A stretch of 64,000 bases of DNA, taken from positions 64,001 through 128,000 of the forward strand of contig CAWCYI010000004.1 in the NCBI GenBank assembly GCA_963799845.1, read 5' to 3'. The notes under the pieces are model-generated. The model was not told where the DNA came from and searched no databases. It was given only the letters and a program-made list of their open reading frames with translations. Numbering within the stretch: the first letter of the stretch is position 1; each line of letters starts with the position of its first letter. The position numbers and the translations under genes were made by a program. Shown piece by piece: positions 10,781-14,055 of this stretch. The DNA is from an uncultured Nitrososphaerota archaeon (GTDB taxonomy: Archaea > Thermoproteota > Nitrososphaeria > Nitrososphaerales > CADDZS01).

Positions 10781-11662
10781 TTACCCGTCAAACTCGTTTG
10801 TAGGCAACCCCCTAACATCAACTTTGGCAACGAACAGTCCTCCGCTTAGAGGCTTTGCAGCTAGCACTTTTGGATCCAGCCCATTTTTCGCAGAGGTAAT
10901 GTAAAGCTCATCAAGATTTCTTCCCCCGAAGCAACATGACGTAACCTGATCCGCAGGAATTTCGAAAGTGTCGAGAAGCTTTCCGGTTGAAGGATTCCAC
11001 CTCGTCAATCTCGCTCCTCCCCAGTGAGCGACCCATATCATTCCCTCTTCGTCGACTGCCATTCCATCCGGAGAACCCGGCTGGTTGTTTTGCACGAAAT
11101 CAACGGCCGTCCTTCTATTCTCGATCGCGCCAGTCGCCAATGAATAATCGAAAGCTGACACCTTCAGTGTTGGAGTGTCTATGTAGTACATTACTTTGTT
11201 ATCCGGGCTCCACCCCAGCCCGTTTGATATCGTGACGTTGGGTAGGACTTTATTCAGTTTTTTATTCTTCTCCAGAACGTAAAGTGAACCACTGGAGGAT
11301 CTCTCCTCTCCGTCCATCGTCCCAGCCCAGAACCTCCCTGCAGGATCGCACTTGCCATCATTGAACCTATTTCCGTCCCTTTCTGTTTCTACTTGTTCCG
11401 TCAAAGGAGTGAGCACTTTACTTTCAAGATCCAGTCCGTAATAGCCATGTTGAAGTGTTAGGGCAAGTCCTCCGGCTTTTCTTGGTAAGACGCAGCTGAC
11501 GTCATTAGCCCAAACAACCTCTTCATCGTCAGGATTGTTGGGAGTGTGAGCATAAATGACTCCTTTGTAAATGTCAACCCAGTAGAGAATCTCTTTTTCT
11601 GCGTCCCAGCTCGGGCCCTCGCCCAGCTCGGCTCTCAGGTTTGTGGCAATTTCAGGAATCAT
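10781..11662 (-). CDS. SMP-30/gluconolactonase family protein
   Basis: LGEGPSW, RFNDGKCDPAGRFWAGTM, SNGLGWSPD, PDGMAVD. Confidence 0.93.
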   Translation of the reverse strand: MIPEIATNLRAELGEGPSWDAEKEILYWVDIYKGVIYAHTPNNPDDEEVVWANDVSCVLPRKAGGLALTLQHGYYGLDLESKVLTPLTEQVETERDGNRFNDGKCDPAGRFWAGTMDGEERSSSGSLYVLEKNKKLNKVLPNVTISNGLGWSPDNKVMYYIDTPTLKVSAFDYSLATGAIENRRTAVDFVQNNQPGSPDGMAVDEEGMIWVAHWGGARLTRWNPSTGKLLDTFEIPADQVTSCCFGGRNLDELYITSAKNGLDPKVLAAKPLSGGLFVAKVDVRGLPTNEFDG

Positions 11663-11868
11663 GACTGACGCTTAGATTCAATCATCTCTATAACAATTAC
11701 AGCATCAATATTTTATGGAGTGAAAAATTATAGAGTTTGCAATTACTCTATTTCCCAAAGTTGATCTTTGAAATCAAATCTTCAGAGGGAATGCACTAGA
11801 AAAGAGTAAAGGACCTGAAATAGAAAATAGCCTTGATAATGAAACGGAGTTTGATTAATCGAAGTAAA

Positions 11869-11943
11869 TGGTAGGGAACGGCGGACTCGAACGCGCCACC
11901 TCCAGCGAGACCGGCTGGAATCCTGCCCTTGGACCAGCTCCCT
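11869..11943 (-). tRNA. Atypical tRNA / tRNA-like RNA, anticodon position GUC, A1-U72, A73, encoded CCA
   Basis: Minus strand folds as AGGGAGC-UG-GUCC-AAGGGCA-GGAU-U-CCAGC-CGGUCUC-GCUGG-AGGU-GGCG(C)G-UUCGAGU-CCGCC-GUUCCCU-A-CCA; U8, A14, GG in D loop, A15:U48, GUUCGA all present. Confidence 0.85.
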
Positions 11944-11974
11944 GACAAGTAACTTTCGAGACAGCCAATCAAGG

Positions 11975-11993
11975 TAATAAGCAATTTGCTCAT
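11975..11993 (-). promoter_or_regulatory. TATA-like box of the tRNA-like gene overlapped by an AT-centred palindrome (candidate Lrp box)
   Basis: TTATTA (minus strand, 11975-11980) lies 32 nt before nt 1; ATAAGCAATTTGCTCAT 8-1-8 inverted repeat with one mismatch. Confidence 0.45.
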
Positions 11994-12059
11994 AATCTTG
12001 ACAAAATGACGACTGAATGCCTTTATACTTCGGATAAATCCGTCGTATTACCAATAAAA

Positions 12060-12500
12060 ATGGAAGAAAAGGATGAGGCTATAATTCGCAAGTTGAGAAT
12101 TGATTCAAGCGAGTCGGTTTCTGAAATCGCTTCGGACCTTAATTTGCCCAGAACTACGGTTCAGGAGAGAATCAAGAAAATGGTCCAAAATGGTATAATC
12201 AAGAGGTTCACGCTGCAGCTAGATTATTCGAAAATCGGAAAATCAGTAACCGCGTTTATTTTAGTCTCATTCCTCGCAGGAACAGGAGTCTCTCAGAAGG
12301 AGGCTGCCCAGAAAATTGCCGAGATTGATGACGTGTATGAGGTTCATGTCATCTCGGGAGACTGGGACATTATCGCGAAGGCGAGGGGAGAGTCGATCCA
12401 ATCCATTGGCGAACTGGTTCTCGACAAGATCAGAAACGTGAAGGGCGTGGAGAGAACACTCACCTGCACATCTTTTGTCACGATCAAAGAGACTCTGTAA
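12060..12500 (+). CDS. Lrp/AsnC family transcriptional regulator
   Basis: HTH (EIASDLNLPRTTVQERIKKM), GIIKRFT, RAM domain (VHVISGDWD); ATG 12060 lies ~35 nt after a TTTATA box. Confidence 0.93.
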   Translation: MEEKDEAIIRKLRIDSSESVSEIASDLNLPRTTVQERIKKMVQNGIIKRFTLQLDYSKIGKSVTAFILVSFLAGTGVSQKEAAQKIAEIDDVYEVHVISGDWDIIAKARGESIQSIGELVLDKIRNVKGVERTLTCTSFVTIKETL

Positions 12501-12625
12501 TCTACCGCTCCATAGATCGCCTTCCTATTTTCCAATTTTTTCGCATAAATTATTCGGGCTATTGACCAAGTCTTTGAGTCATCTTAAATAGCGTCCAGAG
12601 AAATCGTGGGAAAGCCGAACGCACC

Positions 12626-13561
12626 GTGAATGCACAAGAAGTAATCGCAGACCTCAGAAAACAGGACATTGAAATCCTGACAGAAGAGAGGTTAACCAAG
12701 ATTATCAACGAAATCTCAAAGCCAGTCACGTACATCGGCCTTGAGCCGAGCAACGTCATTCACATCGGGAACCTAAGTGCTTCAATTCCTGTATTCAAGC
12801 TTGCAAAACACGGCTTCCGGGCGATAATACTCCTCGCCGATCTGCATGCCCTCGCGAATGACAAGGGCGAGATCGGGGAAATTCAGAAATTTGCTGAATC
12901 CGATAAAGAGATGTTTGAGAAAGTTGCCAGAAAGATGGGCATCAGTGGCAAGCTCGAATACAAGTTCGGTACCGAGTTTGAGGATCAGAAATACTTTATC
13001 CAGATGTTGAGGCTTTCAAGGGTGATCAACTTTACCGAAGCCGAGAAGAGCATGGACGAGATCAGCAAATCGTCGGTCAGCAGGATGACGTCCTCGTTGA
13101 TTTACCCTCTGATGCAGGTACTTGACATCGGAGAGTTAGGGGTAAATGTCGCGGTCGGTGCGATAGACCAGCGAAAGGTGCACGTTCTGGCGATTGAGAA
13201 TCTCAAGAAGCTCGGGTACCCGACGCCCGTCGCCATTCACTCCAAGGTCATCCTGCAGGGAGTCGATGGAAAGAGAAAGATGAGCAAATCCTTCGGGAAT
13301 ACGATCAATCTAGACGAGAGCCAAGACAGTCTGGAATCAAAGATAAGGAAAGCATACTGCGCTCCCGGCGATGTTGATGTCAATCCTATTCTGGGTTGGT
13401 ACAAAGCTCTGCTCTTTCCAGTCCTCGACCGACCTCTCACCTTCGGTGCCAAGGAAATTGAAAATTTCCCAGTTCTTGAAACGGTTTGGAAGAAAAACGA
13501 GATAACTCCTCAGGAACTAAAACGCTCCGCCGTAAGAGATCTCGCGGAATTGCTAATCTGA
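12626..13561 (+). CDS. tyrS: Archaeal-type tyrosyl-tRNA synthetase, divergent (probable paralogue)
   Basis: YIGLEPS, HIGN, IILLADLHA, YPLMQVLDI, DQRKVH, KMSKS; anticodon-domain motif altered (ITPQELK). Confidence 0.88.
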   Translation: MNAQEVIADLRKQDIEILTEERLTKIINEISKPVTYIGLEPSNVIHIGNLSASIPVFKLAKHGFRAIILLADLHALANDKGEIGEIQKFAESDKEMFEKVARKMGISGKLEYKFGTEFEDQKYFIQMLRLSRVINFTEAEKSMDEISKSSVSRMTSSLIYPLMQVLDIGELGVNVAVGAIDQRKVHVLAIENLKKLGYPTPVAIHSKVILQGVDGKRKMSKSFGNTINLDESQDSLESKIRKAYCAPGDVDVNPILGWYKALLFPVLDRPLTFGAKEIENFPVLETVWKKNEITPQELKRSAVRDLAELLI

Positions 13562-13641
13562 GCGCGCAAATAGTCGTCTTCATTTCTTGCGAATCGAAAA
13601 AGCTTTTCACCATCCGATTTTGAGCTGAGGTCCGGCCCTAA

Positions 13642-14055
13642 ATGTACTGGTTATTCAAAGAAGACCCTGTGAGCTACTCGTTTGCTCAACTGGAGAAAGA
13701 CCGGAAAACAGCTTGGGAGGGAGTACACAACAATCTTGCCCTAAAATACCTAAGGCAGGTGAAGAAGGGAGATCTGATTTTCTACTACGAGACGGGAGAC
13801 ACGAAAAGCGTGGTGGGTATGATGAAGGCCTCGGGAGACGCGTATTCAACGGAAAAGGGCGATCTTCTTTCCTCGAAAGAGGTAGCCGTCGACGTCGTTC
13901 CTCTAAGAAAACTGAAAAATCCGGTCTCGCTTCAGAAGATCAAATCTAGCTCGAAATTCAAAGACTTTTTGCTCGTGAGAATCTCCAGATTGTCGGTCAT
14001 GCCGGTGACAAATGATCAGTGGGAAGAGATTCTGAAGATTTCCGAAGGGGCCTAG
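13642..14055 (+). CDS. EVE domain protein (PUA-like, modified-nucleic-acid reader)
   Basis: YWLFKEDP, WEGVHNNLA, KKGDLIFYY, SRLSVMPV. Confidence 0.92.
   Translation: MYWLFKEDPVSYSFAQLEKDRKTAWEGVHNNLALKYLRQVKKGDLIFYYETGDTKSVVGMMKASGDAYSTEKGDLLSSKEVAVDVVPLRKLKNPVSLQKIKSSSKFKDFLLVRISRLSVMPVTNDQWEEILKISEGA

Follow-up and report, generated by a model that had tools for sequence, protein, structure and literature searches.

A conserved tRNA-like RNA inherited with a divergent Lrp-family regulator gene in one family of Nitrososphaerales

What is a tRNA-shaped gene with an abnormal anticodon loop doing back to back with a transcription regulator gene, and which synthetase, if any, does its product meet? 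The locus lies in a window (the whole stretch of DNA analysed here) of 64,000 nt from an uncultured Nitrososphaerota archaeon (GCA_963799845.1, CAWCYI010000004.1 positions 64,001-128,000; genome G000, 86.7% complete). The original prediction read the tRNA-like gene, the adjacent Lrp gene and a following tyrosyl-tRNA synthetase (TyrRS) gene as one system in which a degenerate TyrRS paralogue is dedicated to the RNA. We compared the locus across 13 genomes, G000 included, of one Nitrososphaerales family of uncultured soil archaea. These are incomplete MAGs of close kin within a single family, and counts taken across them are not independent. One of them, G001, is unpublished; it is among the five genomes with no RNA match and the four with no Lrp orthologue, and also supplies a GTPase match and a weak tRNA-Asp match. 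The features of the locus are as follows.

11869..11943, minus strand: tRNA-like RNA gene, 75 nt (sequence, fold, orthologues and covariation)
11975..11990, unstranded: putative promoter of the RNA (motif and position recur in 8/8 orthologous spacers)
11998..12052, unstranded: putative Lrp promoter region (by eye in eight aligned spacers)
12060..12500, plus strand: Lrp/AsnC-family transcription regulator, 146 aa from the conserved start (PF13404 and PF01037)
12626..13561, plus strand: tyrosine--tRNA ligase, 311 aa, a class-I W/Y synthetase (NF006330, 266 bits against a 220-bit cut-off); a neighbour outside the module
13642..14055, plus strand: EVE-domain protein, 137 aa (PF01878); a neighbour outside the module

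Parsed by hand, the RNA folds into a cloverleaf with an acceptor stem of 7 bp, a D stem of 4 bp, and anticodon and T stems of 5 bp each. Its anticodon-type loop, CGGUCUC, has seven nucleotides and places GUC at positions 34-36 between G33 and U37. A single bulged C interrupts the 5' strand of the T stem. The molecule also has a G10.U25 pair, and its ends consist of A1-U72, G2-C71, G3-C70, A73 and an encoded CCA. The gene contains no intron; nearly all other tRNA genes of G000 carry them. ARAGORN reports no genes in the window, and no Rfam family, RF00005 included, matches over the RNA at its gathering score or, in a search of a 1101-nt stretch, at E<=10. Such genes escape standard tRNA and Rfam scans, so the annotation of intron-rich archaeal genomes overlooks them. 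The RNA is nevertheless found as a single copy in 8 of the 13 family genomes and at 22 metagenome loci, which contribute 17 distinct sequences.

In tRNAs that decode, U33 and a purine at position 37 are near-universal. Of the 17 distinct sequences, 11 have G at position 33, four have A and one has U, and the remaining one has an 8-nt loop. The GUCU that follows, including U37, is present in 17/17 and C38 in 16/17. The T-stem bulge occurs at a conserved position in five of six genome RNA sequences and in most copies overall. The acceptor end is invariant (AGG/CCU plus A73), and the encoded 3' terminus varies, with ATCA, ATTT and ACTT occurring besides CCA. Could this RNA still work as a decoder of GAC and GAU, or through a shifted or odd anticodon, carrying aspartate or another amino acid for regulated mistranslation in the manner of tRNA-ProA? 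Several features would suit that role: the full cloverleaf with GUC at 34-36, and the T loop UUCGANU, D-loop GG and CCA or CCA-ready end of most copies. In addition, the G008 lineage has U33, and ARAGORN calls that copy tRNA-Asp(GUC). A Gly-like body joined to an Asp-like anticodon also recalls the chimeric mistranslating tRNAs described in PMC10404621. We nonetheless consider a decoding role unlikely. Of the 16 sequences whose loop has seven nucleotides, 15 lack U33, and a purine never occurs at position 37, which is U throughout. The bulge breaks the T stem in nearly all copies, and the Rfam tRNA model gives no match even at the relaxed threshold. The loop leaves position 33 free to be G, A or U and freezes positions 34-38, which is the opposite of what decoding demands.

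The same departures might instead mark a decaying tRNA pseudogene, retained solely through the overlap or contact of its DNA with the Lrp regulatory region. Such a relic would be missed by tRNA finders, would carry loop and T-stem defects and an irregular 3' end, and would be absent from some family members, all of which is the case here. The pattern of substitution makes this reading improbable. Orthologues are 79-100% identical, with conservation that begins and ends sharply at A1 and at the CCA or other 3' end. The six sequences taken from genomes are paired in 97.6% of 126 pair cells and show double-sided changes in 12 of the 21 pairs, a result matched by 0/500 shuffles; slid controls reach only 40-49% pairing. 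The 17 metagenome sequences, whose alignment was fitted to the model and leans towards structure for that reason, give 99.2% of 357 cells paired and double-sided changes in 10/21 pairs (0/500 shuffles match). Each of the four stems shows compensatory double changes, and pairing is preserved at 97-99% over three genera. Because the orthologues keep the fold through compensatory change, the RNA is more than a chance resemblance; it is real and under selection, and both its fold and that selection are directly established. The "defects" themselves are conserved, in the invariant GUCU and in the position of the bulge, and a conserved TATA-like box of its own stands at a suitable distance from the gene.

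Covariance models R1 and R2 were run over the order and over the class, with 151 genomes each, and the matches inspected outside the family (23 sequences from the order search and 21 from the class search) were all ordinary tRNAs. Two weak matches with a CUGUCUC loop in Caldarchaeum-type loci, L112 and L115 (21.5 and 15.3 bits), were set aside; they lie 2.5 kb from an Lrp homologue, and their acceptor stems show no covariation. A full-text search of the main texts of the literature found no description of such an RNA. Four of six listed public runs were compared with positions 11500-13600 of the window. Two peat RNA libraries each gave one short contig, one matching the 3' end of the Lrp gene (12365-12538) and the other the TyrRS gene (12663-12930). 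The RNA contigs do not cover the RNA gene, and the DNA contigs also skip 11713-12138, so this comparison says nothing about its expression.

The original prediction made the neighbouring TyrRS the centre of the system: a specialised, anticodon-blind paralogue would charge the RNA with tyrosine under Lrp control, either for use off the ribosome or to mistranslate Asp codons as Tyr. The arrangement is suggestive, since the three genes are adjacent in G000, in G004 and at eight metagenome loci. The supposed loss of anticodon-reading residues held up in part. The M. jannaschii enzyme contacts G34 through Phe261, His283 and Asp286 (PMC10135938). By alignment, the G000 enzyme has His283->Thr and Asp286->Glu, so that two of the three contact residues differ, and it retains Phe261. 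These changes are common to the whole family clade, which has Thr or Ser for His283, Glu or Gln for Asp286 and a degenerate HIGH motif (HIGN, SIGN, HIGF).

A second TyrRS, which a paralogue would imply, was not found in G000 or in five further family genomes. The only two PF00579 genes in G000 are this TyrRS and a TrpRS (521 bits), and G004, G007, G008, G010 and G011, two of which are 94% and 96% complete, have at most two each and one TyrRS per genome. Overall, 11 of the 13 family genomes have one copy. The protein exceeds the NCBIfam equivalog cut-off (NF006330, 266.2 bits against 220) and matches the A. fulgidus 2cyb and M. jannaschii 1j1u enzymes over their full length. With one TyrRS found per genome, it must serve normal translation; it is the ordinary, sole housekeeping TyrRS of the lineage. 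It shares only about 30% identity with the enzymes of other Nitrososphaerales families, which suggests that a different archaeal TyrRS type replaced the earlier one. This sole, divergent TyrRS holds some interest for synthetase evolution, and its single-copy status removes a tempting wrong story about the locus.

Linkage between tyrS and the RNA is not conserved. The gene adjoins the module in two of eight RNA-bearing genomes (G000 and G004) and at 8/19 metagenome loci with enough downstream DNA, and this adjacency is confined to the closest subclade of the window. At the other 11 informative loci an oxidoreductase gene follows Lrp instead. In G005, G008, G010 and G012 tyrS is on a different contig, G006 has it 7 kb off on the other strand, and G007 keeps the same TyrRS type with an empty RNA/Lrp slot. 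Both the single-copy status and the unlinked distribution are direct observations. The EVE-domain gene, which had been suggested as a possible further member, comes after TyrRS in G000 and G004 and at a single metagenome locus, L246; most contigs examined end before that position, and we treat it as a neighbour only.

The sequence of the RNA also fits poorly with tyrosine. According to PMC9976931, the archaeal Tyr identity set comprises A73, C1-G72 (the main determinant), G34, U35 and A36. Only A73, G34 and U35 fit; the RNA has invariant A1-U72 in place of C1-G72 and invariant C36 in place of A36. A tRNA-Tyr(GUA) gene, whose absence would favour the TyrRS-centred scheme, was not located in G000 by ARAGORN with introns or by acceptor/T-arm, anticodon-hairpin and intron-tolerant scans, but in a genome of this completeness with introns at odd places, not found does not mean absent. 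No tRNA-Tyr call was made among the other loci collected, and ARAGORN with lowered thresholds returned thousands of false calls. The distribution of the genes largely refutes the TyrRS-centred scheme, also by the tests that the original prediction had set itself, and we regard a dedicated pair of TyrRS and RNA as highly unlikely. The enzyme probably came to lie beside the module by local rearrangement, in a lineage that uses a divergent, short archaeal TyrRS type.

The link between the RNA and the Lrp gene is conserved. As predicted, the two stand back to back, with 116 bp between their 5' ends (originally put at about 115 bp). The Lrp protein contains an AsnC-type HTH (PF13404, E 3e-9) and a ligand-binding RAM domain (PF01037, E 3e-14), and it falls below every NCBIfam equivalog cut-off, the best being LysM at 93.6 against 180 bits. 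Alignment places its conserved start at 12060 rather than at the start of the longer open reading frame, 12006. Orthologues are 62-87% identical and always divergent from the RNA. This head-to-head arrangement holds in 8/8 RNA-bearing genomes and 22/22 metagenome loci, the latter being the loci that have a family-type Lrp and extend far enough upstream, for a total of 30/30. The outer flanks of the module vary. Upstream, G000 has a gluconolactonase gene where the other loci have one for an Obg-like GTPase, and downstream of Lrp there may be TyrRS, a luciferase-like oxidoreductase gene or XdhC.

Within one genus, the same slot holds either both genes or neither: G010, G011 and G012 have RNA and Lrp, and G007 has 67 nt between its GTPase and oxidoreductase genes, with no RNA or Lrp gene in the gap. 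Because G007 lacks both genes at the same syntenic slot, RNA and Lrp behave as a two-gene module; their linkage and joint absence are observed directly, which supports the prediction of an orphan, non-canonical tRNA-like gene tied to an Lrp regulator. Joint absences in G001, G002 and G009 say little, as adjacent genes are lost together in unassembled regions, and G007 is the only clean empty site. The RNA-linked Lrps form one clade (SH-aLRT 96), within which sequences cluster by genus (g1, g2, g3), the pattern expected from vertical descent; the tree resolves no sister group for the clade. Among 64 loci with Lrp homologues elsewhere, the Lrp gene is head-to-head with an AsnA-type asparagine synthetase gene in seven, and the closest homologues outside the family adjoin an HMG-CoA-synthase-like gene (named by eye from sequence) in 21. 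A tRNA-like attachment site, or a place within a small mobile element that carries the Lrp gene, would suit the block-wise presence and absence at one slot but is very improbable. The RNA-linked Lrp clade follows the genera, each RNA-bearing genome has a single copy, and the flanks examined contain no integrase or other mobility gene. No flanking repeats are visible between G007 and G011, although about 600 nt of extra DNA in G011 keeps that comparison from being clean.

The shared spacer contains candidate control elements for both genes. On the RNA side, the palindrome AAGCAATTTGCT is overlapped by a TATA-like TAATAAG (CTTATTA in the RNA sense), which sits some 32-38 nt upstream of A1. On the Lrp side, a box TTGACAAAATGACGAC (11998-12013) and a second box CCGTCGTATTACC (12040-12052) surround a TATA-like CCTTTATAC (12020-12028); in relatives these boxes read CGTCAnnnTGACG. 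In 8/8 spacers a TATA-like box and its palindrome lie near -35 relative to A1, and the second TATA box is flanked by two CGTCAnnnTGACG-type boxes. We take these motifs as putative promoters and Lrp operators. A genome-wide scan for CGTCAnnnTGACG gave no enrichment (six found against about 3.9 expected), and no regulon can be read from it. We infer that the RNA is expressed and that Lrp most likely controls both promoters.

Which synthetase might such an RNA engage? An L-shaped tRNA architecture with two conserved ends is the pattern that would be expected for an RNA bound by a tRNA-spanning protein, for example a synthetase. According to the same article, the strong Asp determinants are G73, G34, U35, C36 and C38, and G10.U25 is an identity element in yeast. 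The RNA has A73 instead of G73 in all copies, and its loop keeps the other four of these five determinants, G34, U35 and C36 without exception and C38 in all sequences but one, which makes AspRS the best-guess partner. The G10.U25 pair is also found in tRNA-Gly of the same order and is not specific to Asp. A canonical tRNA-Asp exists alongside the RNA. The one in G000 has GUC, A37, C38, G73 and two introns; a DNA search gave matches in all 13 family genomes (that in G001 weak), and the canonical anticodon loop and G73 are confirmed in the 10 of 12 relatives whose sequences were read (all but G001 and G002). With this tRNA-Asp the RNA shares the cloverleaf, the GUC triplet and C38. Its overall likeness is greater to tRNA-Gly(CCC) (49-56 of 76-79 positions identical) than to the tRNA-Asp of G000 (38-44 of 75-79), so that the link to Asp rests on five loop nucleotides. 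With canonical tRNA-Gly(CCC) of the same order it has in common the D arm, anticodon stem, A73 and G3-C70. It differs from both canonical archaeal tRNAs in its non-U33, U37, T-stem bulge, A1-U72 and absence of an intron, and from tRNA-Asp in having A73 rather than G73. The Gly determinants named in PMC9976931, C2-G71 and C35, are replaced by G2-C71 and U35. The A1-U72/A73 acceptor end resembles that of the tRNA-Gln genes of G000.

We found no additional AspRS-like gene or paralogue of another synthetase that might be dedicated to the RNA; G000 has one AspRS, whose gene occupies positions 1-620 of the window and continues upstream, and one AsnRS. The explanation that we favour, and consider probable, is a module of two genes in this one Nitrososphaerales family, consisting of a non-decoding tRNA-like RNA and a divergent Lrp regulator, in which the RNA may be bound by AspRS off the ribosome. 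As a best guess, the housekeeping AspRS would bind the RNA and perhaps charge it. The RNA would then work off the ribosome, either carrying an aminoacyl group in a regulated way or titrating AspRS.

A more elaborate version, which we think quite unlikely, would have an amino-acid-sensing Lrp switch on a chimeric non-decoding tRNA with a Gly-type body, GUC plus C38 and a tRNA-Gln-like end, charged by a housekeeping synthetase for use off the ribosome. One option under this version is a regulated scaffold for tRNA-dependent amino-acid conversion: G000 has one AsnA-type asparagine synthetase and GatE, GatB was not found in it, and the AsnA-type gene also accompanies some of the Lrp homologues described above. 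The chimeric RNA might otherwise be an aminoacyl donor or a synthetase titrator. If this version were true, archaea would have their first example of a tRNA-like effector served by a transcription factor of its own. Independently of that version, a conserved archaeal tRNA-like RNA would offer a tractable entry into archaeal tRNA-based regulation or tRNA-dependent metabolism.

RNAs of tRNA shape with non-decoding jobs are known mainly from bacteria, eukaryotes and viruses. Among them, tRNA-Other of Bacillus cereus and mascRNA are non-decoding or regulatory tRNA paralogues or mimics. Certain mRNAs also carry anticodon-like domains that bind their own synthetase, as PMC9976931 reports. Like these, the present RNA appears to use a tRNA shape for a non-decoding role, and its anticodon-like determinants could bind a synthetase. 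Unlike them, it is archaeal and free-standing, with its own (putative) promoter, a conserved GUCUC loop, a T-stem bulge and co-inheritance with an Lrp gene; to our knowledge, none of these distinguishing features has been reported for tRNA-Other, mascRNA or the mRNA domains. In Streptomyces, the duplicated synthetase ProRSx is reportedly dedicated to an odd tRNA, tRNA-ProA, which decodes. That system (PMC10404621), to which the original prediction had compared the locus, resembles ours in having an extra, non-standard tRNA whose body and anticodon are of different identities. It differs in that here no duplicated TyrRS or AspRS was found, the RNA has neither U33 nor a purine at 37, and the partner gene encodes a transcription factor. 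For the Lrp gene, the nearest parallel in layout is asnC-asnA of E. coli, in which an Lrp-family regulator gene is divergent from its amino-acid-metabolism target. Both loci place an AsnC/Lrp-family gene head-to-head with a presumed target across a short spacer with palindromic boxes; in E. coli the partner is an enzyme gene, and here it is the gene of a tRNA-like RNA.

The window (C4:64001-128000) belongs to a 4.6-Mb genome on nine contigs (C4 being one of them) that is estimated to be 86.7% complete, and its named relatives are MAGs labelled Nitrososphaerales archaeon. The gene order described in the original prediction is borne out in the sequence:

11869-11943, minus strand: tRNA-like RNA, 75 nt, folds as a cloverleaf
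12060 (start), plus strand, opposite the RNA: Lrp/AsnC gene (PF13404 and PF01037)
12626-13561, after the Lrp gene: class-I synthetase (TyrRS), 311 aa
directly after the synthetase gene: EVE-domain gene

Alignment of orthologues places the Lrp start at 12060 rather than at the longer ORF start (12006), and the spacer between RNA and Lrp is 116 bp. Parsed by hand, the RNA has an acceptor stem AGGGAGC/GUUCCCU with one G-U pair, followed by U8 and G9, a D stem GUCC/GGAU (with a G10-U25 pair) closing the loop AAGGGCA, and an anticodon-type arm with stem CCAGC/GCUGG and loop CGGUCUC. The variable region AGGU leads into a T stem GGCG[C]G/CCGCC that contains a single bulged C and is capped by the loop UUCGAGU, and the 3' end is A73 followed by CCA, with T-rich tracts downstream. 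ARAGORN makes no tRNA call anywhere in the window, and Rfam has no match to the RNA at gathering scores or, in the surrounding 1.1 kb, at E <= 10. The gene has no intron, whereas ARAGORN places one in 26 of its 29 tRNA calls for this genome.

A DNA search of 41 genomes (this one and 40 relatives) found the RNA in three genomes of the same genus at 93-100% identity and in two further genera of this family at 84% and 79%, with similarity ending sharply at exactly A1 and the 3' CCA. A covariance model added G010 and G011, and the RNA is present in 8 of the 13 family genomes (G000, which is the window's own, and relatives G004, G005, G006, G008, G010, G011 and G012). The remaining five genomes, G001 among them, give no match and are 58-88% complete. 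Standard pairs fill 97.6% of the 126 pair cells in the six distinct sequences from genomes, and 12 of the 21 pairs change on both sides; neither figure is reached in any of 500 shuffles, and slid partners give only 40-49% pairing. Scanning metagenome contigs with the Lrp alignment yielded 80 loci, 22 of which carry the RNA as 17 distinct sequences. In this set, whose alignment was fitted to the model, pairing holds in 99.2% of 357 cells, and double-sided changes occur at 10 of 21 pairs. The odd RNA is a real gene under selection.

In this RNA, A1-U72, G2-C71, G3-C70, A73, U8, U11-A24, C31-G39 and the GUCU at 34-37 are invariant in the 17 metagenome copies and, except where noted, in the six genome sequences; C38 occurs in 16 of the 17. 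Position 33 is G in 11 metagenome sequences, A in four and U in one, and in one copy the loop is 8 nt long. The T stem keeps its bulge, with a variable base (C, U, A, or 2-4 nt); the bulge lies two pairs further out in G010 and is missing from G011. ACCA is encoded in 15 of the 17 metagenome copies and five of the six genome sequences; only three of the 68 candidates in our own tRNA scan of the genome end in CCA.

The RNA lies head-to-head with an orthologous Lrp gene (62-92% identical to that of the window) in 8 of 8 genomes and 22 of 22 metagenome loci, and genome spacers measure 116-142 bp. Every metagenome locus with a family-type Lrp and enough upstream DNA carries the RNA (22/22). More distant Lrp loci lack it, and the Lrp identities of holders and non-holders overlap only at the metagenome loci L260 and L261, the least similar holders (62-63% identical to the Lrp of the window). 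Outer neighbors vary. On the far side of the RNA, G005, G008, G010, G011, G012 and seven metagenome loci have a gene for an Obg-like GTPase carrying a TGS domain, and a luciferase-like oxidoreductase gene lies beyond Lrp in the same five genomes and 11 metagenome loci; in the window the neighbors are a gluconolactonase gene and tyrS, and in G006 Lrp is followed by an XdhC-like gene. G007 (88% complete) has 67 nt between its GTPase and oxidoreductase genes, with neither RNA nor Lrp in the gap, and its whole genome contains no RNA (model with filters off, E <= 10) and no Lrp orthologue, which indicates that RNA and Lrp are gained or lost together as one unit. In the ancestral arrangement (L074:3498-4736, with orthologues in the same five genomes), the RNA is convergent with the GTPase gene; TGS domains bind tRNA acceptor ends.

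In all eight spacers a TATA-like box lies some 35 nt before A1 and overlaps a palindrome, AGCAnnnTGCT; immediately ahead of the Lrp start, a further TATA box sits between two CGTCAnnnTGACG-like boxes. Together with the T-rich tracts, these elements would fit a bidirectional, autoregulated promoter region. A genome-wide scan found no enrichment of the palindrome.

The proposal that the RNA is paired with a dedicated TyrRS paralogue must be rejected. The enzyme scores 266 bits against the NCBIfam tyrosine--tRNA ligase equivalog (cut-off 220), aligns end to end with the TyrRSs of A. fulgidus (E 8e-62) and M. jannaschii (E 2e-55), and is the sole copy in its genome, where the only other PF00579 gene encodes TrpRS (521 bits). 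Exactly one copy, 65-85% identical to it, occurs in each of 11 family genomes, and a family-model search found no second TyrRS in five of them, including two that are 94% and 96% complete. TyrRSs of other Nitrososphaerales families are only 27-38% identical and have longer open frames; in a large protein collection, about 95 proteins reach 60% identity or more, after which identity drops to 42% or less. The family enzyme is thus a distinct short type, resembling the TyrRSs of M. jannaschii and A. fulgidus (loci including L061-L071 and L156-L181), and this points to a replacement specific to the lineage. Within the clade, the HIGH and KMSKS motifs vary to an unusual degree. In M. jannaschii TyrRS, according to the available part of PMC10135938, Asp286 hydrogen-bonds G34, on which Phe261 and His283 stack. 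The sites aligned with His283 and Asp286 are Thr/Ser and Glu/Gln across the clade, so the original prediction was partly right about the residues that read the anticodon, but the change is a trait of the lineage's only TyrRS, also in genomes without the RNA. Linkage of tyrS to the module is local: it follows Lrp in G000, G004 and 8 of 19 informative metagenome loci, all with Lrps most similar to that of the window, and an oxidoreductase gene takes this place in the remaining 11. The RNA also lacks C1-G72, unlike archaeal tRNA-Tyr, for which this pair is the chief determinant in the portion of PMC9976931 consulted. ARAGORN with introns and our own scans located no tRNA-Tyr in this 86.7% complete genome. 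Here the TyrRS is an ordinary enzyme, although an atypical one for the order.

Introns interrupt almost every tRNA gene of the genome. An acceptor/T-arm scan recovers genes of 90-250 nt (for example C4:141091-141231, C6:592995-593224 and C7:180521-180744), which must hold two or more introns at noncanonical positions. A gene outside the window at C8:78364-78439, labelled tRNA-???(cttg) by ARAGORN, combines A1-U72 and A73 with an anticodon loop of 8 nt, CUCUUGGA; it resembles a tRNA-Gln whose loop is one nucleotide too long, and a second, normal tRNA-Gln(UUG)-like gene lies at C6:181586.

The odd RNA is not the cell's own tRNA-Asp, since a separate canonical gene exists at C4:488361-488476 (acceptor GCCCAGG/CCUGGGC, G73, a loop ending UGUCAC and two introns). 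This tRNA-Asp is matched by DNA search in all 13 family genomes, and its canonical anticodon loop and G73 were confirmed by reading in 10 of 12 relatives (all except G001 and G002). In overall identity the odd RNA is closer to the order's tRNA-Gly(CCC), with 49-56 of 76-79 positions identical, than to the tRNA-Asp of its own genome (38-44 of 75-79). Decoding tRNAs near-universally have U33 and a purine at 37. A free position 33, an invariant pyrimidine at 37 and a bulged T stem speak against a ribosomal role, and the RNA is probably not a decoder. That the L-shaped RNA is frozen at both ends suggests a protein partner that, like a synthetase, would read the two of them.

The strong Asp determinants, in the section of PMC9976931 consulted, are G73, G34, U35, C36 and C38; the loop of the odd RNA carries four of these five (G34, U35, C36 and C38), and A73 replaces G73. 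The genome has one AspRS, at C4:63298-64620 (a gene that begins upstream of the window and takes up positions 1-620 at its very start), of the non-discriminating archaeal type by NCBIfam (470 bits), as well as one AsnRS and one AsnA-type asparagine synthetase. It contains no spare class-IIb synthetase paralogue, and GatB was not found in it, only GatE. About 11 kb of DNA separate the AspRS gene, on the upstream side, from the RNA with its GUC, too far to count the two as linked. In our working model, the RNA would be a tRNA mimic that does not decode, is controlled by the Lrp and engages AspRS.

The finding that stands is a module, restricted to this family, of a noncanonical tRNA-like RNA and an Lrp regulator; full-text literature searches found no description of such a module. 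Lrps linked to the RNA group in a single clade (SH-aLRT 96), nested within a widespread set of archaeal Lrps. Two Caldarchaeum-type contigs carry, 2.5 kb from the Lrp homologue, a stretch that is weakly tRNA-like and has CUGUCUC in a hairpin loop (L112:491-563 and L115:446-518; 21.5 and 15.3 bits), and comparison of the two copies shows no covariation. The other members of the widespread Lrp set are partnered by an HMG-CoA-synthase-like gene, named by eye, in 21 of 64 loci and by an AsnA-type gene, matched to NF005054 over a 60-residue piece, in seven. In these seven (L130, L133, L134, L137, L140, L141 and L143, from Thermoplasmata and some other Nitrososphaeria), the Lrp homologue is head-to-head with the gene for the AsnA-type (AsnRS-like) asparagine synthetase, and these archaeal pairs look like asnC-asnA of E. 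coli.
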